Below, in pieces: positions 3,343 to 60,356 of a DNA stretch of 64,000 nt (its first letter is position 1; each line of letters opens with the position of its first letter). A program made the position numbers and the translations under genes. The stretch spans positions 2,025-66,024 of the forward strand of contig CAZMCO010000001.1 in the NCBI GenBank assembly GCA_964565215.1, given 5' to 3'. The notes beneath the pieces are model-generated. The model did no database searches. It was not told the origin of the DNA and worked only from the letters and a program-made list of their open reading frames with translations. Origin of the DNA: an uncultured Candidatus Saccharibacteria bacterium (GTDB lineage: Bacteria; Patescibacteriota; Minisyncoccia; Portnoybacterales; UBA2143).

Positions 3343-3343
3343 A

Positions 3344-5032: not shown

Positions 5033-5065
5033 GTGCTGCGTGTCTGCCAGTTCCACCACTCCGGC
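4979..5065 (-). tRNA. tRNA-Leu (anticodon CAA), long variable arm, CCA encoded
   Basis: Manual fold. The acceptor arms GCCGGAG / CTCCGGC pair, the anticodon stem CAGCA/TGCTG closes a CTCAAAA loop, and the T-loop reads GGTTCGACTCC. Confidence 0.8.
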
Positions 5066-5129
5066 TTATTAATATTCTCTCTTAAAATCCCCTTGTTGTC
5101 AATTGGAAATCAGAGTATAATAGAAGTGT

Positions 5130-5894: not shown

Positions 5895-5897
5895 TTT

Positions 5898-8272: not shown

Positions 8273-8393
8273 AGAGTTAATTGTAATATCTTGACAGGGT
8301 AATTGTAAAGGATATAATCAAGATAAGTTCTTTATCAATTTTTATCTTGGTTAGTTAAAAAGACAAACCTTCTTGAACTAAGGGGGGTTTATT

Positions 8394-8879: not shown

Positions 8880-8883
8880 CCAT

Positions 8884-8927
8884 TGCCCCGATTTTGTATT
8901 TCAAAAATCGGGGCTTATTTTTTTTCA
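8884..8927. terminator. bidirectional rho-independent terminator between the NUDIX gene and topA
   Basis: Hairpin gccccgatttt...aaaatcggggc flanked by A and T runs. Confidence 0.7.
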
Positions 8928-17313: not shown

Positions 17314-17360
17314 AGAAATATCTTGCCAAAAGGAAAATTAAGTAGTATATTGGGAATAAG

Positions 17361-31812: not shown

Positions 31813-31841
31813 TGACAAACTTATCAGAGTATGTTAGTATA
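31813..31841 (+). promoter_or_regulatory. putative promoter TTGACA-17-TAGTAT followed by hairpin aaaatcccc-agat-ggggatttt (31846-31868)
   Basis: Direct read; located upstream of the 3D-domain gene. Confidence 0.4.
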
Positions 31842-31885
31842 CAGAAAATCCCCAGATGGGGATTTTAAGTTTGCTTTAAAAACAT

Positions 31886-32380
31886 ATGTATACTAACCCT
31901 AAGATTTCCGCTTCTTTGATTTTGGTTAGTTTGGTTTATCACATTGTTTTACCTCAATATGGTTTAGCTGATCTAAATTTAATTGAGGAACAAGAATTTA
32001 AGTTACCACTAATGCCTTTTAATGGATTGGTTACTCTTCAAGGTCAGGCCTTGATTCAATCAACTAATCCAGATACCCCAGTGATCTTGGCTCAATACTG
32101 GGTGCCAGTAACTGGTTATTCCAGTACCCCAGACCAAACTGACTCAACGCCTTTTATCACTGCTTCAGGAACTTATGTTCATGATGGAGTGATTGCTTGT
32201 AACTTTTTGAGGTTTGGTACTAAGGTCCGTTTCCCTCAACTATATGGAGAAAAGATTTTCTTAGTTGAGGATCGGATGGCTGCTAAAAACAGTCATAAAA
32301 TGGATATCTGGTTTATTAGCCGCGATCAAGCCAAACAATTCGGTATCAAAATAGCCAAAGTAGAGATTCTGGAAACATAA
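31886..32380 (+). CDS. 3D-domain (MltA-like) cell-wall-associated protein
   Basis: Signal/TM N-terminus and the conserved 3D-domain Asp residues (…FLVEDRMAAKNSHKMDIWF). Confidence 0.65.
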   Translation: MYTNPKISASLILVSLVYHIVLPQYGLADLNLIEEQEFKLPLMPFNGLVTLQGQALIQSTNPDTPVILAQYWVPVTGYSSTPDQTDSTPFITASGTYVHDGVIACNFLRFGTKVRFPQLYGEKIFLVEDRMAAKNSHKMDIWFISRDQAKQFGIKIAKVEILET

Positions 32381-32410
32381 AGACCCCGTTATTCGACGGG
32401 GTCTTTATTT
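32381..32410 (+). terminator. rho-independent terminator (agaccccgt...acggggtct + T run)
   Basis: Perfect 9-bp GC-rich stem followed by TTTATTT. Confidence 0.7.
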
Positions 32411-32497
32411 GGTGCCGCGGGTGGGACTCGAACCCACACGGGCATAATGCCCACACGATTTTAAGTCGTGCGCGTAAGCCAATTCCGCCACCGCGGC
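32410..32497 (-). tRNA. tRNA-Leu (anticodon TAA), CCA encoded
   Basis: Manual fold: long variable arm and anticodon arm CACGA-CTTAAAA-TCGTG. Confidence 0.8.
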
Positions 32498-32498
32498 C

Positions 32499-32572
32499 TG
32501 GAGGTCATGACCGGATTCGAACCGGTGTACACGGTTTTGCAGACCGTTGCCTAGCCGCTCGGCCACATGACC
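32499..32572 (-). tRNA. tRNA-Cys (anticodon GCA), CCA encoded
   Basis: Manual fold: anticodon arm ACGGT-CTGCAAA-ACCGT and U73. It is 1 nt from tRNA-Leu. Confidence 0.8.
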
Positions 32573-32604
32573 TTTTTCTTAGATTACCATATTTTCAATC
32601 AAAT

Positions 32605-32940
32605 TCAAGATTTCTTAATTTTTCCTAAAATTTCTTCAATTCGTTGAGCTTTAATTTCCGCTTGGTCTATGGCAAATCTGATTTTAGGAACTATTCTCAT
32701 ATGTAATTTTTTATTTAGGATTTGCTGAAGATGGAAAATATTTCTTTCTAAAATTCTTAAAACCAGTTCATCTTTTTTTACTGGCATAACACTGATTTTA
32801 ATTTTTGCCTGTCTTAAATCAGTTGATGTTTCTACATTAGTCACTGTTACTAAGATATTACCAAAATCAATTTCTCGTAGAATTAATTGACTAATTTGTT
32901 GTTTAATTAATTGATTGACTCGTTTAATCCGTTGGCTCAT
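32605..32940 (-). CDS. rbfA: ribosome-binding factor A
   Basis: RbfA KH-like fold; N-terminus R..RV...+. Confidence 0.8.
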   Translation of the reverse strand: MSQRIKRVNQLIKQQISQLILREIDFGNILVTVTNVETSTDLRQAKIKISVMPVKKDELVLRILERNIFHLQQILNKKLHMRIVPKIRFAIDQAEIKAQRIEEILGKIKKS

Positions 32941-32943
32941 TAA

Positions 32944-34452
32944 TTAAATTTCTCTTTTCTTTTTTTCCTCCTGATAGATTTCTAAAATATCTCCTTTTTC
33001 CACCCTGGTTTGGCTTTCCAAGAGAAGGCCGCATTCTTGTCCCTTAGCTATTTCTTCGGCATCTTTTTTATTGCGTTGGAGTTGGATTAATCTGGCCTGA
33101 CCTATTTTTTTATTCTCCCTAATAATATCAATGAGAACACTTTTTTTAACTCGTCCGCTAGTTACCCGGCCGCCAATAATCTGTCGGTCTTTCTCGCTAT
33201 GGAATAGAGCTAAAACCCTAATTTGCCCAATAACATTCTTAATAATTTCTGGTTTTAAAAGCTGAGAAAGCAGTTCTCTGACTCCTTGGATAAGCTCGTA
33301 GATTACTTCAAAAAGTGAGATTTTTATTTTCCTCTGTTGAGCTAATTCTCTAATAGCTGAACTAGCTTTAACTCGAAAACCGATTATTTTTGCTTGAGCT
33401 GATTCAGCTAATTTAATATCTGATTCATTGATTTCACCGACTTCGCTTTTTAAAACCCTTAAGATGACTTCTTCTGAAAGAATATTTTTAAGTGATTCTC
33501 TAATTGCTTCTAAAGAACCTTGAACATCGGCTTTGAGAATTATATTAAGGATTTTTTTGTCTGGCTCAAAAACAAAGACTTCTTTTTCTTCTTTTCTTTT
33601 GGATGTTTTTTTGACTATCCTAACCTGGGCTTCTTCTAAACTATTAAAAACAGAGAATTTTTCTCCTATTTGAGGAACCCGATTAAATCCGGTGACAATA
33701 ACCGGCATTGAGGCGGTCGCTTTTCCTAAGGGCTGAAATTGAAAATCTTCCATTGTTTTAATTCGTCCGCTGGCTGAATCTGTTCCGACAATATCTTTAT
33801 TTTTTAAAGTGCCTTTCTTTACTAAGAGGGTAGCCGTTGGTCCTCGTCTGGGGTCTTGATAAGACTCAATAACCAGACCAGAGGCCAATTGGTCTATTTT
33901 AGTTTTTAATTCTTCCATTTCAGATAATAAAATAATCATTTCTAAAAGTTCATCGATGCCCTGGCCGGTTTTAGCCGAAAGATTAACTGAAGGCACTTGG
34001 CCGCCTAAAGATTCCACGATAATATTATTTTCTGATAGTTCTTTTTTGACTTTTTCTGGTTGAGCTTCTTTTTTATCAATTTTATTTAGAGCAATAATTG
34101 AAGGAAGACCAATTTTTTTTATATGAGCGATAGATTCTTTAGTTTGCGGCTTGATCCCTTCTTCAGCCGCTATGACCAGAACAGCAATATCAGCTACTTT
34201 GGCTCCTCGGGAACGCATAGCGGAAAAGGCCTCATGACCGGGCGTGTCAATAAAAGTAATCTTTTTGCCTTGATGTTCTATCTGATAAGCGCCAATGTGT
34301 TGGGTAATGCCGCCAGCTTCTTTTTCAACTATTTTGCTTTTACGGATATAGTCAAGAATACTTGTTTTACCATGGTCAACATGGCCTAAAATAACCACTA
34401 CTGGCGGCCGAGATTGTAATCTATTATCTTTTTTTTCATTTTTTTTTGACAT
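32944..34452 (-). CDS. infB: translation initiation factor IF-2 (compact, 502 aa)
   Basis: GHVDHGKTS G-domain, DTPGHE, NKID and C-terminal beta-barrels. The N-terminal domains are absent. Confidence 0.9.
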   Translation of the reverse strand: MSKKNEKKDNRLQSRPPVVVILGHVDHGKTSILDYIRKSKIVEKEAGGITQHIGAYQIEHQGKKITFIDTPGHEAFSAMRSRGAKVADIAVLVIAAEEGIKPQTKESIAHIKKIGLPSIIALNKIDKKEAQPEKVKKELSENNIIVESLGGQVPSVNLSAKTGQGIDELLEMIILLSEMEELKTKIDQLASGLVIESYQDPRRGPTATLLVKKGTLKNKDIVGTDSASGRIKTMEDFQFQPLGKATASMPVIVTGFNRVPQIGEKFSVFNSLEEAQVRIVKKTSKRKEEKEVFVFEPDKKILNIILKADVQGSLEAIRESLKNILSEEVILRVLKSEVGEINESDIKLAESAQAKIIGFRVKASSAIRELAQQRKIKISLFEVIYELIQGVRELLSQLLKPEIIKNVIGQIRVLALFHSEKDRQIIGGRVTSGRVKKSVLIDIIRENKKIGQARLIQLQRNKKDAEEIAKGQECGLLLESQTRVEKGDILEIYQEEKKKREI

Positions 34453-34930
34453 TGACTCCTGCCTTTTTTAAGGCCTCCATTTCTTCTTTAGACAAAGGAT
34501 ATTTTGATTGACCAACTTCTATTGGCTTACTGTAAATTCTGCTTTCTTCCCTTGAATACAAACTAGAGATAACTAAACCATTATTTTTTGAATCAAGTAA
34601 AGCGATGACAAAACTTTGGTCACCGCCAGTATCTTTAAAAGGATTGAAGCGGATCAAGCCAACTTTCTGAATACTTTGACTGGCCATTTTCTCTAAAACC
34701 TTAGAAGATTTAATCAGTTTTTTAATTTCCGCCTCTGATTTTTTCATTCGTTTAATTTCTTCAAAGAGAACTCCTTCTAAATCAGAGGCCTTTTTACCAG
34801 CAAAAAATACTTTCAGCTTTTTTTTAATTTGCCAAAGATGAAAATGAAGGAAAAAATTCCAAATAATCAATAGGCTAATAACTATTAGAAAAATAAAGAA
34901 AATTGTCTGGTTAATTAAGATATTTTCCAT
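34436..34930 (-). CDS. DUF4446-like membrane-anchored protein
   Basis: N-terminal TM plus the ...LIRFNPFKDTGGDQSFVIALLD... core, resembling DUF4446. Confidence 0.45.
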   Translation of the reverse strand: MENILINQTIFFIFLIVISLLIIWNFFLHFHLWQIKKKLKVFFAGKKASDLEGVLFEEIKRMKKSEAEIKKLIKSSKVLEKMASQSIQKVGLIRFNPFKDTGGDQSFVIALLDSKNNGLVISSLYSREESRIYSKPIEVGQSKYPLSKEEMEALKKAGVNVKKK

Positions 34931-35077
34931 GGCGGAGTTAACGTCCCAAATTTCGAACTAAAATTGTCTCAAATTGATCCTTTTGTCCGGAAATTAAGGA
35001 AAATTTACAAAGTTAATCCTGAATGGTTTGAGGTTCCTGAATTTGGGATTGAATTATTTTAGTCCTTATCTTTAAAG

Positions 35078-36070
35078 TTATTCTACATTAAACATCACAT
35101 AATTGCCAGATTCTTTAACAGCGACATCGCGAGATTTTCGGTGATTTTTGTAATCAAAGTTTTTAATCAAATTTTCTAATTGCTTCTTGTCTTTAGCAAT
35201 AAAACATTGATAGCTACTAGCCAATATGAGTTGATTTATTTCTTTTACTTTCTTTTTATCCAATTTAAGAAAATGTTCCGTTTTTGATTTAATTTTAGGC
35301 TTTATTGCAATACATAAATCCGGTCTTAGTGGAAAGAGAACAATAGCATTCGAGGATAATAAGCCGTTCATAATTTTTGTTGGCGATAAAGTAAAACAAG
35401 GATTATCTGATGTTGTAAAAAAGGAGTCTTTTGGCGCGTTTAAAAACAACCACTGAACATTAAATAACCCTTTTGCTAATCTCTCAACTTTTAAAATATC
35501 TTTTGAGTGCCCTGTATTTGTTAATTTTATTTTATAATCATCACTATGAAGAAATTGAAAGGTCTGCTTCTTGATTTCCGCATCAGACATCGTATTAATT
35601 TTTTCCAAAGCGTCTTTCTCAAATTTATTGGCAGGATTATGTTTAAGAATTTCTTCTTTTGAAATTTTGATTTTATCCAAAGAAGAAGTATCTTTTCGTA
35701 TAAAATATTTAATTACTGCTTCCATAAATTTGTCGGTCTCTTCCCTATGTCTTAGAGTTCTAATATATTGAAGAGCAACATAAAATGCGATACAACTTCG
35801 TTCCCATCCGTTTAATTGTTTTTGTTTTTTATTATCAATATTTCTGATACTTTCGGTTCCCTTAGAATCAATCAAAGCTGTTATTTTTTCGGGTAAATAA
35901 AATTTGTCTTTTCCTTCGGTAAAAACATTAAAATCTTTTTTCCAAAAACCTTTCCATCTAACCCCTCGCTCTATGAATTTATTTTCTGGAATCAAATAAA
36001 TATTAAGCTGATTACTGTTATTCTGCCATTGCACAAGGTATTTGGCTTGAATAGTGTGGTGTTTTGCCAT
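35078..36070 (-). CDS. hypothetical 330-aa protein, DUF4238-like
   Basis: N-terminal HH..Q..YL motif and internal TSDNP motif as I recall for DUF4238. It is divergent from the methyltransferase, with an 81-nt shared promoter region. Confidence 0.35.
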   Translation of the reverse strand: MAKHHTIQAKYLVQWQNNSNQLNIYLIPENKFIERGVRWKGFWKKDFNVFTEGKDKFYLPEKITALIDSKGTESIRNIDNKKQKQLNGWERSCIAFYVALQYIRTLRHREETDKFMEAVIKYFIRKDTSSLDKIKISKEEILKHNPANKFEKDALEKINTMSDAEIKKQTFQFLHSDDYKIKLTNTGHSKDILKVERLAKGLFNVQWLFLNAPKDSFFTTSDNPCFTLSPTKIMNGLLSSNAIVLFPLRPDLCIAIKPKIKSKTEHFLKLDKKKVKEINQLILASSYQCFIAKDKKQLENLIKNFDYKNHRKSRDVAVKESGNYVMFNVE

Positions 36071-36151
36071 AATTACATATCCTGTGGATAAAGCGGGTTT
36101 GTGTCTGTATAGGTATCATATTATAATATAAGTAGTAACGCAAATGATTTT

Positions 36152-37249
36152 ATGCCAACCACCCAAACATTTAAAGCAATTTATTTTCCTGATTTTAAAG
36201 AAGTAAATCCTAAATCAAAGGGTTTGATTTTAGCTTTCGGCGAAAAAAACAAAGATCTATACAAAAATATCGCCGATTTGGAAAGTAATGAAATTAGGAA
36301 TTTGCTTGGAACTGATTCATATATTGAACTCGAACAACGGGCTAAAGAAGAAGGTTTGCCAGTAAATACTTATTGTCTTTGGTATTTGCGGAAAAATGTA
36401 TTTGCTGAAGAGGAAATAATCAACAATAACGATTCAAAAGAAAAACCTATCTCCCATTTCTCTAATAATGTAATTGAAGGTGATTGTTTAGAGGTTATGA
36501 AAGAAATTCCGCCAAAATCAATCGATATGATTTTATGTGATTTGCCCTATGGCACTACTCAAAATAGTTGGGATAGTCTTATTCCGCTTGATCTGCTTTG
36601 GGAGCAATATGAACGTATTATTAAAGATCAAGGCGTTATTGCTCTAACTGCACAAGGTTTATTTACTGCAAATCTATCTTTGTCAAATCCAAGATTATTT
36701 AAATATAAGATTACTTGGGTAAAATCAAAGCCAACCAATTTCCTTAATGCCAAAAAGCAACCATTACGTAAACATGAGGATATTTGTATTTTTTACAAAA
36801 AACAGCCTGAATATAATCCACAAATGACTTATGGCGAACCTTATAATAAAGGATTCCGAAAAGATCAATTAACTGGAAGTTATGGTGATTTTAAAACCGT
36901 AGAAGTAAAAAGCAATGGCGAAAGATATCCGACCGATGTTATTTATTTTAAAACAGCCGAAAGTGAAGGGGAAGTCTACCATCCTACTCAAAAGCCAGTT
37001 GAGCTTGGCCGTTATTTAATTCGCACCTTTACCAAGACCGATGAGATTGTATTAGATAATACTTGTGGGAGTGGAAGCTTCCTTGTTTCCGCAGTTTTAG
37101 AAGGCAGAAAATTTATTGGCATTGAAAAAAATCAAGAAGTTTATCTTTTCAAAAAACACCGAGTAGATTATATTGATGTTTGCAAACAGAGAATTAAAAA
37201 AGCACAAGAACAATACAAAATAGAAAGCAGTAAAGTAAAGCTTTTCTAA
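36152..37249 (+). CDS. beta-class N6-adenine/N4-cytosine DNA methyltransferase with ~100-aa N-terminal extension
   Basis: Motif IV DLPYG (a DPPY variant) at ~aa 130, HPTQKP at ~aa 270, and motif I LDNTCGSGSF after that; the order IV before I defines beta class. Confidence 0.85.
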   Translation: MPTTQTFKAIYFPDFKEVNPKSKGLILAFGEKNKDLYKNIADLESNEIRNLLGTDSYIELEQRAKEEGLPVNTYCLWYLRKNVFAEEEIINNNDSKEKPISHFSNNVIEGDCLEVMKEIPPKSIDMILCDLPYGTTQNSWDSLIPLDLLWEQYERIIKDQGVIALTAQGLFTANLSLSNPRLFKYKITWVKSKPTNFLNAKKQPLRKHEDICIFYKKQPEYNPQMTYGEPYNKGFRKDQLTGSYGDFKTVEVKSNGERYPTDVIYFKTAESEGEVYHPTQKPVELGRYLIRTFTKTDEIVLDNTCGSGSFLVSAVLEGRKFIGIEKNQEVYLFKKHRVDYIDVCKQRIKKAQEQYKIESSKVKLF

Positions 37250-38163
37250 ATCCCGCTATATGGTTCTTCCTGTAATATTTTTCTGGCTTCTTCTATTTCA
37301 TCCTCACTTAAAATTCCTTTCTCTTTTAGCCAATTTAATAAATGAAAATATTGGTTTGAATGCAAAATCGGCTTTACGATTTTACTAAGGCCGGTTTCTT
37401 TTTTTATAAATTCAAGATGTTTTTGCGACAGTATACCTCTGCCAATTAAATCGTAAGCGATTCTTAATGCATCAACAGAGGTTAAATTTAAATCGCCAAT
37501 GTGGTTTTTGTCTTTTTTAACATCTGTTTGTTCAATTTCTAAAAGATCTTTTATTTTACTCAAACCGTTTAGATTTCGATTATAAAACTCAATCTCTTGA
37601 CCACGGTAAGTAAACCAGGTTCGTCCTTGCTCTGTAAGAGAGCCGCGTGGCAAATAAACGCCTTCGCGCGCTACTCTTTTCTTTGAAGCCCAACCGCAAA
37701 TATAAAGTGTCCATTTTCTTTGTCTGGCAGTTCCTGGAAGTTCTCTATTTTTAGGTGTTTCAAGATGAGTCATTAAATAAATATCTGTATCAAGTTGTTC
37801 GTCATAAATCTGCCTGGCAAAAAAATTATGTTTTGCTTCTCTTGTGATACCATCGTTGCTTTCGTATTCCTCTTTGAAAGGCAAAGCTCCGCCTCTACAT
37901 TTTACATCTAATTTTACACCAGATGATAGTAAAATATCATAGCCCAAAGGATGATCTTCGGGATTAACTTCTGGCATTCCCAATTTATTCCTGATAACCA
38001 TCTCTGCCAAAGCTCCAAATCCTTGTTCTTCTTTACTGCCTCGTTCTGCACCAGTTATATTTTGATTTTTGGTAATATATTCTGCGGCTTTTTGTCTCAA
38101 ATCAAAACCAAGCTCATCGGTAAGCTTTATGGTAATTGGTTTTGGATGATGATATTTATACAT
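37246..38163 (-). CDS. PD-(D/E)xK-type nuclease, candidate cognate restriction endonuclease
   Basis: GYD-x9-LDVK core preceded by acidic residues. Convergent with the methyltransferase, and the two stop codons overlap (tTAa). Confidence 0.45.
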   Translation of the reverse strand: MYKYHHPKPITIKLTDELGFDLRQKAAEYITKNQNITGAERGSKEEQGFGALAEMVIRNKLGMPEVNPEDHPLGYDILLSSGVKLDVKCRGGALPFKEEYESNDGITREAKHNFFARQIYDEQLDTDIYLMTHLETPKNRELPGTARQRKWTLYICGWASKKRVAREGVYLPRGSLTEQGRTWFTYRGQEIEFYNRNLNGLSKIKDLLEIEQTDVKKDKNHIGDLNLTSVDALRIAYDLIGRGILSQKHLEFIKKETGLSKIVKPILHSNQYFHLLNWLKEKGILSEDEIEEARKILQEEPYSGI

Positions 38164-38189
38164 AATTTAAAAAAGTTCGAAATTGGACG

Positions 38190-38280
<91 letters not shown>

Positions 38281-38353
38281 TTATTGCCTAAACTACCATA
38301 TTTTAAGACCTTTGGTCAAATAAAATAGCCGCTTGAGACGACTATTTTTTTTG

Positions 38354-38427
38354 TGGGCGGTGGAGGACTCGAACCCCCGACCTCTTCAGTGTAAATGAAG
38401 CACTCTAACCAACTGAGCTAACCGCCC
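38354..38427 (-). tRNA. tRNA-Val (anticodon TAC)
   Basis: Manual fold: anticodon arm CTTCA-TTTACAC-TGAAG and A73. Confidence 0.75.
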
Positions 38428-38489
38428 ATAATAGAATTTATTCTACCAGAAATTTTTTAAAAAAGCCAGTTTTCTGATATAATTTATAT

Positions 38490-39686
38490 ATGTTTCCGTC
38501 ATTAGAAAAAAAATATTTTGATGTGCCTTTAACTCATGGTTTTGTTTCTCTATATACTGGTAAGGCCATTATCATGATTGCTTCAGCTCTTTTGGGTATA
38601 TTTTTGCCGATTTTTTTATATGAACTTTTTAATCAGAGTTTTCGAGCCGTAGTTATTTATTATGGATTGGGTTATTTTTTCTATGGTTTAACTGTAGCTC
38701 TGGGCGGAAAATTTTTAAATAAATTTGGTTTTAGAAGGGCCTTACGGGTTAGTGTTTTTCTAGGTGCTTTATTCTACGTTATTTTTTATTTTATTGACCA
38801 GGGTAATCTCAAATATCTAATTCCTTTTTCTATTATTGTTCTAACTTTCTATCGTTTATCTTATTGGTTGCCTTATCATATTGATTTTGCTAAATTTACT
38901 GACAAAAAAGACAGAGGTCGACAAGTTGGTGTGGTTGAGGCGACCCGCTCTGCCTTCCAAGTCTTTGCTCCTTTAATTGCTGGTTTTATTGTGCTTCGCT
39001 TTAGCTTTGATGTTCTTTTTGTTATTACCATTATTCTTTTTTTTACTTCGGGTATTCCTTATTTAACTATTCCGCTGACTCGGGAAAAATTTAGCTGGAC
39101 TTTGAAAGAAACTTGGCAGCAATTTTTTTCAAGAAGAAGAAGGAAAATGGTCTTAGCCTATATGGCCTTTGGGGCAGAGAATGTCATTACTTTAGTTGTC
39201 TGGCCAATTTTTATTTACCAGCTTTTAAAAGGAAATTATTTTAATATAGGAGCGATATCTACTTTAATTATTGGAACAACTGTCATTATCCAACTTATTT
39301 TAGGTAGATATATTGATTTAAAAACTTCTAAAGAAAGAGTTTTGGGCTGGGGGAGTTTCTTTTATTCTTTGGGCTGGCTGATTAAAATTTTCATTACTAC
39401 TGCTTTTCAGATTTTTGTGGTTGGTACTTATCATAGTCTAGCTTATATTTTTTTCCGGACTCCTTTCGATGCTTTAAGTTATGAAATATCAGCTGACCAG
39501 GGGCACTATGTAGATGAATTTACTGTCTTGCGCGAAATGGCCTCTATGTTTGGCAGGAGTTTAATGGTTATTTTAGTTATTTTGGTTTCTTTTTATTTTT
39601 CCATCCAATGGATTTTTATCTTAGCGGCTCTAGCGGCTGTTATTGTTAATTTACTTAGAAGAGTAAAGCAAGAAAGATTTGTTTAA
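38490..39686 (+). CDS. polytopic membrane protein, MFS-transporter-like
   Basis: About 12 predicted TM helices in two 6-helix halves. Confidence 0.45.
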   Translation: MFPSLEKKYFDVPLTHGFVSLYTGKAIIMIASALLGIFLPIFLYELFNQSFRAVVIYYGLGYFFYGLTVALGGKFLNKFGFRRALRVSVFLGALFYVIFYFIDQGNLKYLIPFSIIVLTFYRLSYWLPYHIDFAKFTDKKDRGRQVGVVEATRSAFQVFAPLIAGFIVLRFSFDVLFVITIILFFTSGIPYLTIPLTREKFSWTLKETWQQFFSRRRRKMVLAYMAFGAENVITLVVWPIFIYQLLKGNYFNIGAISTLIIGTTVIIQLILGRYIDLKTSKERVLGWGSFFYSLGWLIKIFITTAFQIFVVGTYHSLAYIFFRTPFDALSYEISADQGHYVDEFTVLREMASMFGRSLMVILVILVSFYFSIQWIFILAALAAVIVNLLRRVKQERFV

Positions 39687-39695
39687 TTATCAAAC

Positions 39696-39724
39696 AAAAA
39701 TCACCCATCTGGGGTGATTTTTTA
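39696..39724. terminator. bidirectional terminator (aaaatcaccc-atct-gggtgatttt)
   Basis: Perfect 10-bp stem flanked by A and T runs. It abuts the 3' end of tRNA-Leu(GAG). Confidence 0.7.
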
Positions 39725-39811
39725 TGGTGCCCAGGGCGGGACTCGAACCCGCATGCCCCGAAAGGCACAGCTCCTCAAGCTGCTGTGTATACCGAATTCC
39801 ACCACCTGGGC
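39725..39811 (-). tRNA. tRNA-Leu (anticodon GAG), CCA encoded
   Basis: Manual fold: anticodon arm GCAGC-TTGAGGA-GCTGT with one G-U pair, and a long variable arm. Confidence 0.75.
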
Positions 39812-39812
39812 T

Positions 39813-40169
39813 TTATTTTTTTTGTTTGGCAATAATTTCCTTGAGCCGAGCTTCTTTAGCTGATTTCTGGCGAATATAGTAAAGTTTAGCTCGCCGGACT
39901 TTGTGTTTTTTGACTACTTCTATTTTTTCAATAGTCGGTGAATGAATTGGGAAGATTCTTTCAATGCCAACTCCTTGGCTGATTTTCCTGACAGTGATAG
40001 TGGAATTAATCCCTCGGCCATGTTTTCGGGCAATAACCAAACCTTCAAAGACTTGAATTCTCTCTTTGTCGCCTTCTTTGATTTTTTGATGAACCCGGAC
40101 TGTATAGCCGGATCTAATTTCGGGAATCTTCTTTAATTGTTTTTTATTAAATGAATCAAGTTTGTCCAT
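39813..40169 (-). CDS. rplS: ribosomal protein L19
   Basis: ...[31 protein letters not shown]...TVRKIS.G.G.ER.F matches the L19 family. Confidence 0.9.
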
Positions 40170-40822
40170 AAATCTTTGGCTAATTCTGATTTGAATTTAA
40201 CTAGTTTACCATTAGGCAGACGAAATTTCAAGTAAGCCGCATGGAGAAATTGTCTTTTTAAACCAACTAATTCCGGCTGTCTTTTAAATTTATATTGTTT
40301 ATCTCCAGCAATCGGATGACCAATTGAAGCCAAATGGACTCTAATTTGATGAGTCCGGCCGGTTTTAATCCTGACTTCTAGCAAAGTATAATCCTTAAAT
40401 CTTTTTAAAATCTTATATTCAGTCCAAGCCTTTTTAGCTTTTTCATCTAGTAAGGCGCTTCTTTTTTTATGGTCTTTTTTAGATAAACTGATGGCTTTAG
40501 TAATTGTCCCTTTTTTATCTTTAACCTGGCCAATGACTAAAGCTAAATATTTTTTAATAACTTTTCTTTCTTGGAATTGCTTTTTTAAATATTCAAAAGC
40601 AGAATTATTTTTAGCTATTATTATTAAACCAGAGGTATCTTTATCTAAACGATGAACAATGCCCGGCCGTAAAGAATCATCGCCAACATCTTTTATTTTT
40701 GGACAATAAGAGAGTATTTGATTAACTAAAGTATTCTTCGTTGATTTATTAACGGGGTGAACTAATAAACCAGCTGGTTTGTCAATGACAAGAATATCAT
40801 TATCTTCGAAGATGACTTTCAT
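40133..40822 (-). CDS. RluA-family pseudouridine synthase
   Basis: [10 protein letters not shown] catalytic Asp motif. I set the start at ATG 40822 (MKVIFED...) because the longer TTG-start ORF in the track runs through tRNA-Ala. Confidence 0.85.
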
Positions 40823-40823
40823 G

Positions 40824-40895
40824 TGGACCAGGTGGGAATCGGACCCACGACCTTCTCTGTGCAAAAGAGATATTCTACCACTGAACTACTGGCCC
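40824..40895 (-). tRNA. tRNA-Ala (anticodon TGC)
   Basis: Manual fold: G3:U70 pair present, anticodon arm TCTCT-TTTGCAC-AGAGA. Confidence 0.75.
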
Positions 40896-40915
40896 TGGCT
40901 AAATATATATTTTAG

Positions 40916-40989
40916 TGGGCGGTAGAGGACTCGAACCTCTGACCTCGTCGATGTCAACGACGCACTCTAACCAGCTGAGCTAACCGCCC
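40916..40989 (-). tRNA. tRNA-Val (anticodon GAC)
   Basis: Manual fold: anticodon arm CGTCG-TTGACAT-CGACG. Confidence 0.8.
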
Positions 40990-40990
40990 T

Positions 40991-41065
40991 TGGTGGGCGT
41001 GCCAGGATTCGAACCTGGGACCTTGGCCTTATAAGAGCCCTGCTCTGCCACTGAGCTACACGCCC
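40991..41065 (-). tRNA. tRNA-Ile (anticodon TAT / UAU), CCA encoded
   Basis: Manual fold: acceptor GGGCGTG/CACGCCC, A73, and anticodon arm GGGCT-CTTATAA-GGCCA, so positions 34-36 read TAT. Confidence 0.55.
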
Positions 41066-41111
41066 AAAACGTTATTATTCTATCTAATTTTAATCATTTG
41101 GTCAATCTTTT

Positions 41112-41158
41112 TTAAAAAATGAGGCGATGGTTTTTTATTGTACCATCGCCTCTTGTTT
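41112..41158 (-). terminator. rho-independent terminator downstream of the HAD hydrolase gene
   Basis: gaggcgatggt...accatcgcctc 11-bp stem flanked by A/T runs. Confidence 0.65.
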
Positions 41159-41825
41159 AAAGCCCTAGGAAACTTGGTAAATCAGCAATTGATTCTATAA
41201 TATTCTGGGCACCTGCTTCTTTAAATTCTTTTTCGGTGGCTGCTCCGGTGGGAACGCCGATGAATTCAATTTGGGCTGCTTGAGTGGCTTGTAAGTCATA
41301 TAGAGTGTCGGCTACATACACGAGATTTTCTTTGGTAATGCCGATCCGTTCGAATTTTTCAAGAGTAGGTCTAAATGTTTTTAGTTCTGGTCCCTGAAGG
41401 CTGTAACCATTCGGTGCCTGAATAAAGAAAAAAATATCAGAAGGAATAGCCGTATTATCTAGATGCAAAGTAAGAGTTTCTTGATCACGGCTGGTAAGTA
41501 GAGAAATCAATAGACCGACTTCCTTTAATTTGGCTAGAGAAAAGAGAGTATCAGGGAAAAGGAGATATCTGTTTTTGACGCCTGATTTCATATAATCTCT
41601 AACGTATTCCTCCATAAAGCTCTTGGCAATTGAGATGGGCCAAATAGCCTTAATTACATTTGCCCAAGGAAGTCCCCATAATTGCCTTAGTTGCTCATAG
41701 TCAGGCACTGGATATCCTTTAAGTTGGGCAAATCTTTGGTGTTCCTGGATACTTCGTTCGGTGGAATCAATGATCACCCCGTCAAAGTCCAAAATCAGTC
41801 CTTTAGTAGATCTTTTCAGATTCAT
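41157..41825 (-). CDS. HAD-superfamily hydrolase (subfamily IA, phosphatase/beta-PGM-like)
   Basis: LILDFDGVIIDS motif I, motif II T, and a C-terminal DD. Confidence 0.8.
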   Translation of the reverse strand: MNLKRSTKGLILDFDGVIIDSTERSIQEHQRFAQLKGYPVPDYEQLRQLWGLPWANVIKAIWPISIAKSFMEEYVRDYMKSGVKNRYLLFPDTLFSLAKLKEVGLLISLLTSRDQETLTLHLDNTAIPSDIFFFIQAPNGYSLQGPELKTFRPTLEKFERIGITKENLVYVADTLYDLQATQAAQIEFIGVPTGAATEKEFKEAGAQNIIESIADLPSFLGL

Positions 41826-41864
41826 TAACCTCTCCTTTCGTTACAGTTTTTGTTAAGGGTCTAA

Positions 41865-43688
41865 TTAAACTTTCTTCTTCATCAAGCTGGCAAATTCTTT
41901 TCGTTCAATGGTTTCTTTTTTGATTAGCGTTTTGGCTATTTGGTCTAATTTTTTTCTCTTTTCAGTGAGGATTTTTTTGGCTGTTCGATAAGCATTATCA
42001 ATAAACTTAGCTACTTCTTTATCAATTTGGGCAGCTACTTCTTCAGAATAATCTTTTGCCGTGGCAATTTCCCGGCCCAAGAAAACTAATTCTTCTTTGC
42101 CGCCAAAAGTTACCGGGCCTAATTTTTCACTCATACCGTATTTTGTCACTAAGCGCCTGGCTAATTCAGTCGCTTTTAGTAAATCACTGGACGCGCCAGT
42201 GGTTAATTCGTTAAAGACCAATTCTTCGGCCACATAACCGCCTATTAAAACAGCTAATTCATCTATGAATTCAGAGCGGCTGTGAAGATGTCTATCTTCA
42301 ATAGGTAATTTAAGAGTATAACCAGCTGCTTCCCCGCGGGCAATAATGGAAACCTTTTGGACTGGATCAGTGTGAGTTAAAGAGGAAATGATTAAAGCAT
42401 GACCTGCTTCGTGGTAAGCAGCAATTTCTTTTTCTTTTTTGGAGAGAATATGGCTTTTCCTTTCTGGTCCTAAAAGGACTTTTTCAATACATTCGCGTAG
42501 TTCGTCTTGGTTAATTTTTTTCTTATTGCGCCGGGCGGCTAAGATAGCCGCTTCATTAACTAAATTAGCTAAATCAGCTCCTGAAAAACCAGGTGTTCTT
42601 TCAGCAATTTCCCGCAGGTTAACCTTTTCTTCTAAAGGTTTATTTCTGGCATGGATTTTAAGAATGTGTTCTCGATCTTTTAAATCAGGCAGATTTAAAA
42701 TAATTCTTCGGTCAAAGCGACCTGGCCGCAAAAGAGCTGGATCAAGAACGTCAGGCCGATTAGTGGCTGAAATTAATATAATCCCCGTATTTGGATCAAA
42801 ACCATCCATCTCCACTAAAATCTGATTTAAGGTTTGTTCTCTTTCATCATGGCCGCCGCCTAAACCAGCTCCTCGCTGCCGGCCAATCGCATCAAGCTCG
42901 TCAATAAAAATCAAAGCCGGCGCGTTCTTCTTGGCTGTATTAAATAAATCTCTTACTCTACTAGAACCGACTCCGACAAACATTTCGACGAACTCTGAAC
43001 CAGAGACACTAAAGAAAGGAACGCTGGCTTCCGAAGCGATGGCCCGAGCAAGAAGGGTCTTACCTGTGCCCGGGGCTCCAACCAGCAAAACCCCTTTAGG
43101 AATTTTAGCTCCTAAATTAACGAATTTTTTAGGGTTTTTTAGAAATTCAACTATTTCTTCTAATTCTTCTTTAGCTTCTTTAAGGCCAGCTACATCTTTA
43201 AAGGTAACTCTGTCTTTTTTATCTTTAGGACTAAATAGACGAGCTCGCGAGCGACCAAAGCTAAAGGCCTGCATTTGACCGCGCTGGGCTCCCCGAAACA
43301 TAAACCAGAAGAAAAAACCAATAATCAATAAAGGTAAAAGAAAAGGCAGAATAGCTCCTAACCAAAAAGCGAGACCGCTTTTTTCTTTTATTTCTAAATT
43401 AACTAATTTAAGCTTTTCTGAATCAAGGCCGTAATTTTTCAAGGATTCGGTTAAAGAGGCCTCTTTTTCTTTAGTCGCTTTTTCATTAGAACCATCTTTT
43501 AATTCAATTTCCAATAGATCGCCTTTAATGACAATTTTTGAAACATTTTCTTGATTGATTTGCTCGACTAATTGACTCAAAGAGACCTCGTCTGGTTTTT
43601 CAGCTGGCCTACTAAGTAAAGTGAAAAATCCGGCAATGGTTAAAAAAGCCAGAAAAGCAATAAGTAAGTTTTTGAGAAGGTATTTCAT
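41865..43688 (-). CDS. ftsH: ATP-dependent zinc metalloprotease FtsH
   Basis: N-terminal TM pair, an AAA+ domain ([11 protein letters not shown]) and an HEAGH zinc site. Confidence 0.95.
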
Positions 43689-43689
43689 A

Positions 43690-44274
43690 TTAGGTCAAAT
43701 CCTTAGCTTTTTCTGAAACAATTAATTTATCTGTTTTTTGATCTAAATCAATAATTTTAACTTTCATTTCTTGGCCGACAAATTTATTAAGTTGATCAAG
43801 AATTTTCTCTTTGTCGCCGTCTTCTACCCGAGGATAATTTTTGTTAGATAATTGGGAAACTGGTAGAAAACCGGATAAACCAGATGATTTAATAATTAAT
43901 CCCCCTCGATTAGCTTCAATTACTTTAACTACGATTACCTTGCCAGTTTGTTTTTTTTCTTTAATAGTCAGCCAAGCTTTTTCTAAATTAGCTTCTCTTA
44001 GAGAAAGTTCGACATAACCGTCTTCATTTTCTGGGTCTAAAACTAGAGCAGAGACATTTTGACCAATTTTTAAATCTTTGAGGATATCTTTATCTTCTCG
44101 TAATTCACCACCATAAACAATGCCAGTACCTAAGGGACCTAGGTCTAAAATAAGGGCATTTTTGCTTATTTTAATAAGACGACCTTCAACTAAATCTCCT
44201 AACTGAGGCAAGTGAGGCACTTGTTTATCTTTTATTAATAATTCTTTTAATGAATTTGATTCTTTTTTAGTCAT
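43690..44274 (-). CDS. S1 RNA-binding domain protein (two S1-like repeats)
   Basis: GDLVEGRL...I.LG and a second G..V.V.V...R.GL S1 pattern. Confidence 0.55.
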
Positions 44275-56434: not shown

Positions 56435-58486
56435 TTACTTGGGCCATTCCTCAACCATTAAAAACTCTTTTTCCTTAAAGGGCAAGTTTTGATAAATTGA
56501 TTCAGTGACAAAAGGTAGAAAAGGATGGAGCAGTTTTAAAGAATTTAGGAGAACATAAGCTAAGACCTGCTTGCTTTGGTGAGTATCTTGTTTTTTAGAT
56601 GTTTCAATATATTTATCACAGAAATCATGCCAGAAAAAATCATAGAGTAAATGAGCCGCTTGACCAAAACGAAACTTTTCTAAATCAGTAGTTACTTTTT
56701 GGCTAGTCGTTTTTAATTGCTTAAGAATAGCTTTATCAACTTTAGTAAGTTTTTTTGGTAATTTAGTCATTGGGAATTTAGAAATTCCGATTTGCCTTAA
56801 GACAAATCGGCTGGCATTCCAAATTTTATTAGCGAATTTTTTACCCATAAGGATGTTTTCTTCAGAAAAGTGAATATCTTGGTTACTTAAGGCCTGATAA
56901 ATTAAGCCAAAACGAGTAGCATCAGCCCCGTATTGATTAACTAAATCTAAGGGGTCGCGACCAGTCCCTAGGGATTTACTCATTCGTTTGCCTTCTTTGG
57001 TTAAGATAGTCGCATGAATAACTACATCTTTAAAAGGTATTTTTTTAACTAGCTCTGAGCCAGAAAAAATCATTCGGGCCACCCAGAGATTAATAATGTC
57101 GCGGGCTGTCACCAGAGTATCAGTCGGGTAAAACCTTTGGAAATCTTTTGTTTTTTTAGGCCAGCCCAAAGTAGCCAAAGGCCATAAAGCCGAGGAAAAC
57201 CAAGTGTCTAAAACATCAGTTTCGTCTTTCAAGGGAATTTGATGACCCCACCAAATCTGTCGAGAGATACACCAATCCTTAATATTTTTTAGCCAGTCAA
57301 AATATACTTTTTCCCAGCGCTTAGGATGAAATTTAATTTGATCGTTTTTAACTGCCTTAATAGCTTGAGCGGCTAATTTGTCCATCTTAAGGAACCATTG
57401 CTGACTAAGAAGCGGTTCAATCATACTATGACAGCGATAGCAACGAGGAACCTGATGAGAATAATCTTCAATTTTTTCTAAGAGATTTTGGCTTTTTAAT
57501 TCTTCCACGACCTTTTGTCGAGCATCTGAAACAGTTAAACTGGCAAATTTTTGTCCAGCTTGTTTAGTCATCCGACCTTTATCGCTAATAACTTGGATAG
57601 AAGGCAGATTATGTCTTTGACCAATTTCGGCATCAACTGGTGAATGAGCTGGCGTAACTTTAACTGCTCCGGTGCCAAATTTTGGCTCAACTATTTTATC
57701 AGCCACAATGGGAATTTGGCGATTAACCAAAGGTAGAATTACTTCTTGACCAATTAAGTTTTTATATCTTTTATCTTGAGGATGAACAGCGACCGCTGTG
57801 TCGCCCAACATAGTTTCTGGCCTGGTGGTGGCGACAATAATATATTTTTTTTCTTCAGCCAACGGATACTTTATGTACCAAAGGTGAGTTTTCTCTTCCT
57901 GGTACTCTAATTCCAAGTCGGATAAACTGGTCTGACAGCGAGGACACCAATTAATCATTCTTTTCCCTTGATAAATCCAACCCTTTTTGTGGTAATACAA
58001 GAAAGCTGTCTTAACTGCTTCTTGATAGTCCTTATCCATAGTGAAAGAAGTCCGGCTCCAATCACAGGAACAGCCCAGTTTTTTCAATTGCTCTAAAATT
58101 AAATAACCATATTTTTTTTGCCAGTCCCAGACCCTTTTTAGAAATTTTTCTCGACCTAAATCATAACGAGTCAGCCCCTCTTTTTTTAGTTCTTTTTCAA
58201 CAACATTTTGGGTGGCAATACCAGCGTGGTCAGTACCAGGCAGCCATAAGGCCTGATAGCCCTGCATTCTTTTCCAGCGGATTAGAATATCCTGAATAAA
58301 AGCATTAAGAGCGTGTCCCATATGAAGTTCGCCAGTAACATTGGGCGGCGGGATGACAATACTGTATTTCTTAGCAGTTTTCTTAACTGGCAATTTATCC
58401 GGATTAAAATAACCCGATTTTTCCCAGACACGGTAAATTTTTTCTTCATTTTCTTTAGGATTATATGATTTAGGTAATTCTTCCAT
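56435..58486 (-). CDS. valS: valyl-tRNA synthetase (compact, 683 aa)
   Basis: PPPNVTGELHMGHA, WLPGTDHAGIATQ and KRMSKSLG motifs. The C-terminal coiled-coil is absent. Confidence 0.85.
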   Translation of the reverse strand: MEELPKSYNPKENEEKIYRVWEKSGYFNPDKLPVKKTAKKYSIVIPPPNVTGELHMGHALNAFIQDILIRWKRMQGYQALWLPGTDHAGIATQNVVEKELKKEGLTRYDLGREKFLKRVWDWQKKYGYLILEQLKKLGCSCDWSRTSFTMDKDYQEAVKTAFLYYHKKGWIYQGKRMINWCPRCQTSLSDLELEYQEEKTHLWYIKYPLAEEKKYIIVATTRPETMLGDTAVAVHPQDKRYKNLIGQEVILPLVNRQIPIVADKIVEPKFGTGAVKVTPAHSPVDAEIGQRHNLPSIQVISDKGRMTKQAGQKFASLTVSDARQKVVEELKSQNLLEKIEDYSHQVPRCYRCHSMIEPLLSQQWFLKMDKLAAQAIKAVKNDQIKFHPKRWEKVYFDWLKNIKDWCISRQIWWGHQIPLKDETDVLDTWFSSALWPLATLGWPKKTKDFQRFYPTDTLVTARDIINLWVARMIFSGSELVKKIPFKDVVIHATILTKEGKRMSKSLGTGRDPLDLVNQYGADATRFGLIYQALSNQDIHFSEENILMGKKFANKIWNASRFVLRQIGISKFPMTKLPKKLTKVDKAILKQLKTTSQKVTTDLEKFRFGQAAHLLYDFFWHDFCDKYIETSKKQDTHQSKQVLAYVLLNSLKLLHPFLPFVTESIYQNLPFKEKEFLMVEEWPK

Positions 58487-59351: not shown

Positions 59352-60356
59352 TTAGGCAACTAATCTTAAGTTGGCCTCAGCTTCAATTTTAGACCAACTT
59401 TGTTTTGAAATTGGCTTTTTTTGATAAAAAGCCGCAGCGGCAATCATAGCTGCGTTGTCAGTACAAAGTTTTGGCTCAGGAATATAGAATTTAGAATTAG
59501 GCAATTCTTTTTTAATTACTTGAGTCATTTGCTGACGCAGTTCCTGATTAGCGGCCACTCCGCCAGAAAGCATCACGGTTTTCACTTTATATTCTTTAGC
59601 TGCTTTAATAGTTTTACTAATTAAAACATCAATGACTGCCTGCTGAAATGAAGCGGACATATCATTAACATTGGGTTTTCCTTTTTTAACTTTATAAAGC
59701 ACGGCTGTTTTTAAACCAGAAAAAGAAAAATCAAAATCTTTAGAATTAATCATTGGCCGAGGTAAATCAAAAGATTGTGGATCGCCTTTTTGAGCTTTTT
59801 GAGAAATAATTGGTCCGCCCGGATAACCGAGATTCAATAATTTAGCCACTTTATCAAAGGCCTCACCAGCTGCATCATCTCGCGTTTCTCCCAATAATTT
59901 ATATTTCCCATGACCTTTCATCAAAATTAATTGCGTATGTCCGCCAGAAACAACTAAACAGATAGCTGGAAAATCTATCTTGGGATTAATCAACCAGTTA
60001 GCATAGATATGTCCCTCAAGATGGTTAATCTCCACAATCGGTTTTTGCCAAGCATAAGCCAAGGCCTCGGCAAAATTAATTCCCACTAAAAGAGAAGGAA
60101 TTAAACCTGGTTTAATAGTCACGGCGATTAAATCAATTTTCGGATTGCCGGCCAGCTTTAATGCTTTTTCTAAACAAGGTTTAATATTTTCTAAATGGGC
60201 TCGGGCGGCTAAATTAGGCACTATTCCGCCATAAGGCGCATGAATTTTTATTTGCGAGGAAACAACATTGGATAAAATTTTAAGACCTTTTGAGTTTTTC
60301 TCAATTAAGGCAATGCCTGTATCATCGCAAGATGTCTCAATACTTAAGATAATCAT
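59352..60356 (-). CDS. tsaD: tRNA N6-adenosine threonylcarbamoyltransferase TsaD (Kae1/Gcp)
   Basis: IETSCDDT N-terminus and an ASKH-fold metal-binding His pair. Confidence 0.9.
   Translation of the reverse strand: MIILSIETSCDDTGIALIEKNSKGLKILSNVVSSQIKIHAPYGGIVPNLAARAHLENIKPCLEKALKLAGNPKIDLIAVTIKPGLIPSLLVGINFAEALAYAWQKPIVEINHLEGHIYANWLINPKIDFPAICLVVSGGHTQLILMKGHGKYKLLGETRDDAAGEAFDKVAKLLNLGYPGGPIISQKAQKGDPQSFDLPRPMINSKDFDFSFSGLKTAVLYKVKKGKPNVNDMSASFQQAVIDVLISKTIKAAKEYKVKTVMLSGGVAANQELRQQMTQVIKKELPNSKFYIPEPKLCTDNAAMIAAAAFYQKKPISKQSWSKIEAEANLRLVA

Follow-up and report, generated by a model that had tools for sequence, protein, structure and literature searches.

The window, by which we mean the whole 64,000-nt stretch of DNA analysed here from a contig of an uncultured member of the Patescibacteria, carries 16 tRNA genes. 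One of these, on the minus strand at positions 40991-41065, is the subject of this report. ARAGORN calls it tRNA-Ile(tat), i.e., a tRNA for isoleucine whose UAU anticodon is encoded as such, and Rfam model RF00005 matches positions 40994-41065 over its full length (model positions 1-71 of 71) at 70.0 bits, with a gathering score of 29 and E=3e-13 for the whole window, the second-highest Rfam score among the 16 tRNAs. Both results bear out the central call of a preliminary description of this DNA, a tRNA-Ile with a UAU anticodon, and the gene is a real, full-length tRNA gene. The adjacent tRNA-Val(GAC) that was also described begins 1 nt after its CCA end. The main features of the locus are given below, and the lines from the acceptor stem to the T arm, with their joining nucleotides, spell out the whole tRNA.

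40994-41065, minus strand: body of tRNA-Ile(UAU), 72 nt (ARAGORN, Rfam, 45-member family), with an encoded CCA at 40991-40993
41033-41031, minus strand: anticodon UAU, TAT in the DNA
Acceptor stem: GGGCGUG/CACGCCC, 7 bp, the 5' strand followed by UA and the 3' strand by A73 and the encoded CCA
D arm: GCUC-AGUGGCA-GAGC, followed by A
Anticodon arm: GGGCU-CUUAUAA-GGCCA, with the 7-nt loop CUUAUAA containing U33 and A37
Variable loop: AGGUC
T arm: CCAGG-UUCGAAU-CCUGG
40915-40989, minus strand: tRNA-Val(GAC) (ARAGORN; Rfam, 67 bits)
40823-40895, minus strand: tRNA-Ala(UGC), third gene of the cluster (ARAGORN; Rfam, 67.9 bits)
41157-41825: HAD hydrolase gene, between ftsH and the tRNA cluster
41865-43688, minus strand: ftsH (Pfam FtsH_ext, AAA and Peptidase_M41)

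An ftsH-linked tRNA family

The 7-bp acceptor stem, A73, encoded CCA and C-U-UAU-A-A loop of the preliminary description can all be read in the sequence, and the window copy also has U8, A14, G18-G19, U33, the T-loop GTTCRA motif and C61, which are invariant or nearly so across the family alignment. The statement that this tRNA folds cleanly stands for the cloverleaf as such, which is upheld by covariation among 45 orthologues, but not entirely for the window copy, whose anticodon stem contains a G27.A43 mismatch and a U31.G39 wobble, and whose minimum-energy fold, computed from the single sequence, is not exactly the cloverleaf and has a modest z=-2.0 against shuffles.

The orthologues come from a sample of 80 ftsH loci on other contigs which, with the window, make 81 loci scanned with ARAGORN. 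The relatives of the window FtsH are found almost only in metagenome-assembled genomes (MAGs) of Patescibacteria, for which candidate phyla radiation (CPR) is another name; the best (locus L001) is 91% identical and the rest 55-70%, and the names among them include Niyogi-, Giovannoni-, Wolfe-, Nomura-, Staskawicz-, Harrison- and Uhrbacteria. A tRNA-Ile(UAU) orthologue is present at 45 of the 81 loci, in 44 distinct sequences. Standard pairs are formed in 99.6% of the stem cells of this family, as compared to 68.7% in shuffles and 28-46% in controls with slid partners, and double-sided (compensatory) changes are seen in 20 of the 21 stem pairs among the 44 distinct sequences. The covariation score is 0.758 versus 0.177 for shuffles and 0.08-0.12 for slid controls, and none of 500 shuffles reaches the observed values. 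In spite of an overall sequence divergence of ~30%, the stretch C32-U33-U34-A35-U36-A37 is invariant in all 45 orthologues, as is A73. At 26 of the 45 loci ftsH is followed on the same strand, after 0-600 nt, by the tRNA, and tRNA-Val(GAC) often comes next; the pairing of Ile(UAU) with Val(GAC) is seen again at L001, L026, L028, L040, L043, L046, L048, L071, L080 and others, and the order Ile-Val-Ala at L001 and L082. The tRNA-Ile(UAU) is, then, an old orthologous family under strong structural selection, linked to ftsH across many Patescibacteria, and the window gene is typical for its clade.

The isoleucine identity of the family can be set against the rules for one other bacterium. The determinants recognized by E. 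coli isoleucyl-tRNA synthetase (IleRS) are reportedly (from 1994 work of Nureki and colleagues) A73, C4-G69, U12-A23, C29-G41, A37 and A38. In the family, A73 and A37 are invariant, C4-G69 is found in 39 of 44 sequences and U12-A23 in 43 of 44; the pair 29-41 varies (it is G-C in the window copy), and A, C and U all occur at position 38. The whole set was defined for a type-1 IleRS and might not hold for type 2. The nearest tRNA to the window copy outside the family is the one tRNA-Ile(GAU) of the data set, at 75% identity.

Two near-identical metagenome contigs bear on the integrity of the cluster. L082, an independent 1.5-kb contig from another sample and the single match in an exact-match metagenome scan, is 100% identical across an intact Ile-Val-Ala cluster. 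L081 (JGI 3300028837, Ga0309839_1009959, 11.9 kb) is 99.96-100% identical to window positions 31826-43974, minus 244 nt. The missing stretch, window 40858-41101, holds the tRNA promoter, tRNA-Ile(UAU), tRNA-Val(GAC) and the 5' half of tRNA-Ala(UGC), and the junction, around L081 position 2870, reads ...aaaaaagattga|gaaggtcgtggg... The deletion could be either an assembly artefact or a strain-level event; since it truncates tRNA-Ala(UGC), an artefact or a defective variant is the more likely.

Some variation within the sample may be added. In one subgroup of loci (L027, L045, L049, L050, L056, L060, L061, L066, L070, L072, L075, L077 and L079) ftsH has a tmRNA gene 2-4 kb upstream of it, and position 38 of the tRNA-Ile(UAU) is C or U rather than A. 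The tRNA family may accordingly comprise two sub-lineages, with the window in the A38 group linked to tRNA-Val(GAC). At L079, which is on a 523-kb Patescibacteria contig, ARAGORN also predicts, at 17234-17323, a putative tRNA-Ser with the anticodon ACT; an anticodon of this kind, starting with A, is very rare in bacteria.

AUA codons, lysidine and isoleucyl-tRNA synthetase

The expectation that AUA would be frequent in this genome was confirmed by counting. In 63 open reading frames (ORFs) of the window, AUA accounts for 294 of 19,394 codons (15.2 per 1000, and 15.8% of the isoleucine codons); it occurs in 62 of the 63 ORFs and is as frequent as AUG or AUC. By comparison, E. coli uses AUA at 4.9 per 1000, and more than 10 per 1000 has been classed as high usage in a 2025 paper (PMC12514573). 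The meaning of the codon was examined in an alignment of 80 FtsH orthologues, using the columns at 544 AUA codons from the 44 loci that bear the tRNA, with the following residue profiles.

FtsH columns at AUA codons: I 40%, V 18%, L 17%, M 4%
FtsH columns at AUU/AUC codons: I 44%, V 19%, L 17%, M 3%
FtsH columns at AUG codons: I 7%, V 6%, L 23%, M 41%

AUA means isoleucine in the loci that bear tRNA-Ile(UAU). A rival reading would be that AUA is reassigned, e.g., to methionine as in many mitochondria, with the tRNA charged with an amino acid other than isoleucine; a UAU anticodon could in principle read both AUA and AUG, and altered codes do occur in some Patescibacteria classes (UGA in Gracilibacteria and Absconditabacteria). 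Here such a reassignment is ruled out, because the AUA profile resembles that of AUU/AUC and not that of AUG; A73 and the D arm match tRNA-Ile, the nearest paralogue is tRNA-Ile(GAU), and normal MetRS and IleRS genes are present. As a separate observation, AUA usage is 22.8 per 1000 codons in loci with an ftsH-linked tRNA-Ile(UAU) and 8.6 in loci without; after control for G+C the excess is +8.7 (t=4.3), a comparison that ignores phylogeny and in which loci without the linked gene may carry tRNA-Ile(UAU) elsewhere.

Textbooks and current papers, a 2026 preprint among them, present lysidine, made by TilS, as the bacterial route to AUA and tRNA-Ile(UAU) as a small set of exceptions; the preprint still speaks of "rare cases". 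For the organism of the window, sequence is available from the window and two extensions (contigs L083 and L087), ~74 kb of a genome that is probably 0.5-1 Mb. No tRNA with a CAU anticodon is found among the 16 tRNAs of the window or anywhere in these ~74 kb, and no PP-loop or TilS ORF in the same ~74 kb by Pfam and NCBIfam annotation (in the window, of ORFs of at least 250 aa). A scan of 1,132 ORFs from the window and the 80 loci for the PP-loop motif SGGxDS returned only an unrelated internal motif in L019, no PP-loop ORF lies within 10 kb of ftsH in the window or the 80 loci, and no group I intron able to hide a tRNA was found in the window. In the saccharibacterium Southlakia epibionticum, TilS (SEML1_0730, PF01171) is encoded directly upstream of FtsH (SEML1_0729) and came out as essential in two of three Tn-seq analyses (PMC10633639). 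The ftsH gene is thus a neighbour of both solutions to AUA, with tRNA-Ile(UAU) downstream in most of the Patescibacteria sampled here and tilS upstream in the saccharibacterium. The arrangement tilS-(hpt)-ftsH is widespread in other phyla too, and the shared linkage could be coincidence, shared regulation or the trace of a replacement event.

A wider view is provided by tRNA counts for 95 complete Patescibacteria genomes in Table S2 of Nakagawa et al. 2026 (PMC13011429). In these counts, the tRNAscan-SE column for Ile contains true isoleucine isotypes only and ARAGORN labels every CAU tRNA "Met", so that the genomes can be sorted as follows.

At least 2 tRNAscan-SE Ile, at most 2 ARAGORN CAU tRNAs: 40 of 95 genomes
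1 tRNAscan-SE Ile, at least 3 ARAGORN CAU tRNAs: 50 of 95 genomes
At least 2 tRNAscan-SE Ile, at least 3 ARAGORN CAU tRNAs: 5 of 95 genomes, with both systems apparent
1 tRNAscan-SE Ile, at most 2 ARAGORN CAU tRNAs: 0 of 95 genomes

The reciprocal pattern (Fisher's exact p=1e-21) is passed over without comment by Nakagawa et al. (PMC13011429). The class of 40 comprises Dojkabacteria (7 of 7), Microgenomatia (12 of 12), Paceibacteria (14 of 20), ABY1 (2 of 4), Gracilibacteria (2 of 5) and single genomes of Doudnabacteria, WWE3 and UBA1384; the class of 50 comprises Saccharimonadia (34 of 36), JAEDAM01 (7 of 7), Kazan-3B-28, five Paceibacteria and three Gracilibacteria. The table gives counts without anticodons, and the second tRNA-Ile is presumably UAU, a reading backed by the 45 loci and by the complete Wolfebacteria genome L033, which has both Ile(GAU) and Ile(UAU). 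From 40 genomes as against 5, the odds are therefore ~40:5 that a genome with a UAU tRNA lacks a third CAU tRNA, and tilS and tRNA-Ile2(CAU) are probably truly absent from the genome of the window.

The partner enzyme was found outside the window. IleRS is absent from the genes of the window, and phmmer searches of the 80 ftsH loci with the window ValRS and LeuRS returned only ValRS, LeuRS and one probable MetRS. The first gene of the window, TatD, led to the JGI contig L083, which over its positions 9866-20801 matches window 1-10936 at 100% identity; its first 9.9 kb therefore adjoin the window on the left and belong to the same organism. L083 encodes MetRS, GlyRS and RecO, as well as the C-terminal part (608 residues) of an IleRS of 1144 residues (L083:3-1829), with the domains tRNA-synt_1, Anticodon_1 and DUF5915 (Pfam, 4e-18) and without the zinc-finger C-terminus zf-FPG_IleRS. 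A full-length near-twin of 946 aa (P0001), which shares 99% identity across the last 460 residues, reaches 912 bits with the ileS equivalog model (cutoff 621), and its next-best models are MupB and MupA, the mupirocin-resistance enzymes, which are type-2 IleRS. Among structures in the Protein Data Bank (PDB), the organism's IleRS finds as its best IleRS the 1032-aa chains of the 8c8u group (1.4e-82), presumably type-2 enzymes, followed by eukaryotic cytoplasmic IleRS (1e-71 to 1e-77) and T. thermophilus IleRS (7e-75); the 921-aa 8c9e and the 917-aa S. aureus 1ffy, which we take to be type 1, are reached only at ~1e-22. The best 120 homologues listed all share this architecture, and those with names are Patescibacteria, Parcubacteria, Portnoybacteria or Minisyncoccales. 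By sequence comparison the enzyme is a type-2, eukaryote-like IleRS. The length of the L083 protein is due to the insertion of a complete histidine-phosphatase domain (Pfam His_Phos_1, ~198 aa) between two Cys-knuckle motifs after the editing region; the insert, with its RHG and second-His catalytic motifs kept, is seen in ~12 of the same 120 Patescibacteria homologues and is absent from P0001.

How AUA would be read

The following additional features of the neighbourhood enter into a proposed mechanism.

41077-41105, minus strand: sigma-70-like promoter, TTGACC-17 nt-TAGAAT (promoter scan, 10 of 12 consensus matches)
41114-41152, minus strand: terminator-like hairpin, GAGGCGATGG, 12-nt loop, CCATCGCCTC, then ATTTTTT (read from the sequence, with a putative function)
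40133-40822, minus strand: RluA-family pseudouridine synthase (NCBIfam TIGR00005, 236.9 bits, above cutoff)
3852-4496, plus strand: TsaC/Sua5, threonylcarbamoyl-AMP synthase, the first enzyme of t6A37 formation (Pfam Sua5_yciO_yrdC; NCBIfam TIGR00057, 175.9 bits, above cutoff)
59352-60356, minus strand: TsaD, transferase subunit for t6A37 (Pfam TsaD; NCBIfam TIGR03723, 420.5 bits, above cutoff)

The putative promoter, the best site of its region by consensus match, ends 12 nt before the 5' end of tRNA-Ile(UAU). The hairpin, which the terminator scan missed because of its loop limit of 8 nt, lies 3' of the HAD hydrolase gene and would separate the tRNA cluster from the ftsH-HAD transcript. The genes that follow the promoter form a compact minus-strand string at 39725-41065: tRNA-Ile, 1 nt, tRNA-Val, 19 nt, tRNA-Ala, 1-2 nt, the rluA-family gene, the gene for L19 (with a 37-nt overlap), 1 nt and tRNA-Leu(GAG). 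On this layout, tRNA-Val(GAC) is probably co-transcribed with tRNA-Ile(UAU).

We consider the gene to encode a functional AUA-reading tRNA-Ile that is partnered with the type-2 IleRS, with a probability of roughly 0.8. In outline, tRNA-Ile(UAU), tRNA-Val(GAC) and tRNA-Ala(UGC) would be transcribed from the cluster's own promoter; A37 would be modified to t6A by the TsaC/TsaD pathway; and the type-2 IleRS would charge the tRNA with isoleucine, as might be expected of an enzyme of the eukaryotic type, which naturally accepts U*AU. Since the anticodon is encoded as UAU, editing of C34 is neither needed nor possible and TilS would have no substrate. The tRNA would then be the genome's sole AUA decoder, tRNA-Ile2(CAU) and TilS having been lost as they appear to be in ~40 of the 95 genomes. 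Misreading of AUG would most likely be avoided, by analogy with Mycoplasma mobile, through an unmodified U34, discrimination by the ribosome and competition from tRNA-Met. The part of the preliminary description that spoke of a different AUA-decoding solution is thus upheld, in that an encoded UAU anticodon implies decoding of AUA without lysidine.

Systems of this kind have been described elsewhere. In M. mobile, U34 of tRNA-Ile2(UAU) is unmodified, IleRS and the ribosome provide the specificity, and the M. mobile ribosome rejects AUG with tRNA-Ile(UAU) while E. coli ribosomes do not (PMC3575796). The organism of the window resembles M. mobile in that an encoded UAU reads AUA in a small, AT-rich genome with frequent AUA, t6A37 is expected and no tilS is seen. 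It differs in having a type-2 IleRS, without the zinc-binding domain in which the type-1 enzyme of M. mobile has a Trp-to-Arg change; moreover, the trait of M. mobile is a species-level novelty inside a tilS-bearing clade and is here common to whole classes. The combination seen here, tRNA-Ile(UAU) with a type-2 or eukaryote-like IleRS, also occurs in Bifidobacterium and Neorickettsia. These tilS-less genera have a eukaryote-type IleRS, which may accept UAU because eukaryotic IleRS charges a tRNA with the anticodon PsiAPsi (Taniguchi et al. 2013; PMC3575796). Since they belong to unrelated phyla, independent origins are probable. Nanoarchaeum equitans and Korarchaeum cryptofilum likewise have tRNA-Ile(UAU) in place of a tRNA-Ile2(CAU) with a modified C (PMC8450103), together with a non-type-1 IleRS, and are ultra-small or deep-branching, but they are archaea, in which the system replaced was agmatidine/TiaS rather than lysidine/TilS. 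The canonical pair of tRNA-Ile2(CAU) and TilS shares with the present system a dedicated AUA decoder and, in Saccharimonadia, a locus beside ftsH (that of tilS), and differs in that the anticodon is encoded as CAU and its C34 converted to lysidine. The eukaryotic cytoplasmic tRNA-Ile(UAU), which matures to PsiAPsi, is also paired with a eukaryote-type IleRS; its genes contain an intron that is needed for pseudouridylation, and the window gene has none.

Several observations weigh against the proposed mechanism. The tilS gene and tRNA-Ile2(CAU) could lie in the genome beyond the ~74 kb, as the five complete genomes in which both systems are apparent illustrate; the UAU identity of the second tRNA-Ile outside the Paceibacteria is an extrapolation; the G27.A43 mismatch is present in the window copy; and if L081 represents a real, viable strain, tRNA-Ile(UAU) would not be essential. 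In addition, a 2026 preprint states that nearly half of bacteria have IleRS2 and yet rely on lysidine, and reports for one IleRS2 a greater sensitivity to the identity of the anticodon bases than for IleRS1. Being also common in lysidine-using bacteria, a type-2 IleRS is permissive evidence and not diagnostic.

The main alternative, which we consider less likely, is that U34 carries a modification (pseudouridine, a 5-substituted uridine or another) and that this modification, not the ribosome, confines the anticodon to AUA and is also a determinant for IleRS. Eukaryote-type IleRS does naturally accept PsiAPsi, a gene for an RluA-family pseudouridine synthase abuts the tRNA cluster, and a mutant haloarchaeal tRNA-Ile(UAU) is reported to carry 5-cyanomethyl-U (PMC3895270). 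On the other hand, the only characterized bacterial tRNA-Ile(UAU), that of M. mobile, has a plain U34 (PMC3575796), and nothing found here supports the earlier suggestion that AUA is probably read via a modified U34. No MnmE, MnmG, MnmA or Cmo genes are seen in the 74 kb. Modifications of the xm5U type generally permit reading of G, which would be harmful in the Ile/Met codon box. The RluA-family gene, which begins 1-2 nt past tRNA-Ala, was considered as a candidate U34/U36 pseudouridine synthase and rejected as evidence, because its closest model is the rRNA enzyme RluD (at a score below the RluD cutoff) and its linkage is not conserved, the gene lying within 3 kb of tRNA-Ile(UAU) at just 13 of the 45 loci.

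It is unlikely that the tRNA is a redundant decoder, in a genome that keeps tilS and tRNA-Ile2(CAU) elsewhere and reads AUA with both LAU and UAU tRNAs. Some bacteria do carry both systems (PMC3575796), and a transitional, dual-decoder state has been proposed for Lactobacillus casei and L. plantarum; the ~74 kb examined, the five dual genomes among the 95 and a viable L081 variant without the tRNA would all be compatible with it. Against this, of the 45 complete genomes in which a second tRNA-Ile is counted, 40 have no more than 2 CAU tRNAs, tilS is not at the ftsH-side position in the window or the 80 loci as it is in the saccharibacterium, and the L081 deletion, cutting as it does into tRNA-Ala(UGC), is better explained by an artefact or a defective variant. 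The strict conservation of the anticodon in 45 of 45 orthologues at ~30% divergence also argues against a dispensable copy.

Lastly, a pseudogene, an anticodon called in the wrong register or a mobile or phage tRNA of recent acquisition, for which the G27.A43 mismatch and the near-identical contig L081 without the tRNA might be cited, is excluded by the full-length 70-bit covariance-model match, the covariation and invariant loop of the family, the synteny with ftsH across deeply diverged genomes (FtsH identity 55-91%), the intact cluster of L082 and the cluster's own promoter. When the 6 kb surrounding the tRNA were compared with phage records by megablast, there was no match.

Some features of the window stand apart from the AUA question. 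It is densely coding, with ~36% G+C, and contains housekeeping genes for LeuRS, ValRS, HisRS, GyrA, topoisomerase I, ribonucleotide reductase, FtsA/FtsZ, IF-2, L19, FtsH, ParA/ParB, RelA/SpoT, TsaC and TsaD; the gene upstream of ftsH encodes an S1-domain protein. Only ~6 of the 16 tRNA genes in the 64 kb have an encoded CCA end. The ValRS (56435-58486, minus strand) has 683 aa as against ~860-880 aa in curated models, ends at the anticodon-binding domain and appears to lack the usual C-terminal extension. Directly after tRNA-Glu, a 524-aa ORF (60477-62051, plus strand) has no Pfam or NCBIfam match and is encoded identically on the metagenome contigs L087 and L088.

Extent and meaning in the Patescibacteria

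The use of tRNA-Ile(UAU), also called tRNA-Ile3(UAU), in place of tRNA-Ile2(CAU) is already known. Nine tilS-less species with this tRNA were counted in 2013 (PMC3575796), and it is recorded from 19 species in tRNADB-CE (PMC4013482) and from 17 genomes in the tRNAscan-SE 2.0 survey (PMC8450103), the published cases all being Mycoplasma, Bifidobacterium, Neorickettsia and a few others. The preliminary description was accordingly right to call such an anticodon rare among cultured bacteria (17-19 species). The same cannot be said within the phylum, where 45 of 81 ftsH loci have an orthologue and ~45 of 95 complete genomes have a second, non-CAU tRNA-Ile. In the searchable literature we found no link of tRNA-Ile(UAU), tilS or lysidine to CPR/Patescibacteria, nor any discussion of a clade-wide extent.

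We lean towards the view that a large share of the Patescibacteria read AUA by an encoded tRNA-Ile(UAU) and a type-2 IleRS, with no lysidine system. This share would include all sampled Microgenomatia and Dojkabacteria, most Paceibacteria, and some ABY1, Doudnabacteria, WWE3, UBA1384 and Gracilibacteria, i.e., 40-45 of the 95 genomes. As the trait is present in several deep classes, and at the position beside ftsH that tilS occupies in Saccharimonadia, it may be ancient within the phylum. The tRNA of the window is ordinary within its lineage, but the lineage is large, and it is the clade-wide extent, established so far only indirectly, that is of interest.

If this view is correct, TilS is not near-universal in bacteria, and if the pattern in the 95 genomes reflects real loss of tilS, a substantial part of bacterial diversity does without an enzyme that is commonly counted among the essential ones and serves as a universal marker (TIGR02432, the TilS family, is one of the bac120 markers). 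There would be consequences for genome annotation, with respect to CAU tRNAs and "missing" Ile2 tRNAs in CPR MAGs, for completeness estimates that rely on the TilS marker, and for any proposal to make TilS an antibacterial target. A clade-wide mechanism that prevents U34 from reading AUG, whether ribosomal or a new modification, would also await discovery, and these bacteria would be a natural system in which to ask how AUG is avoided by a U34 that appears to be plain.

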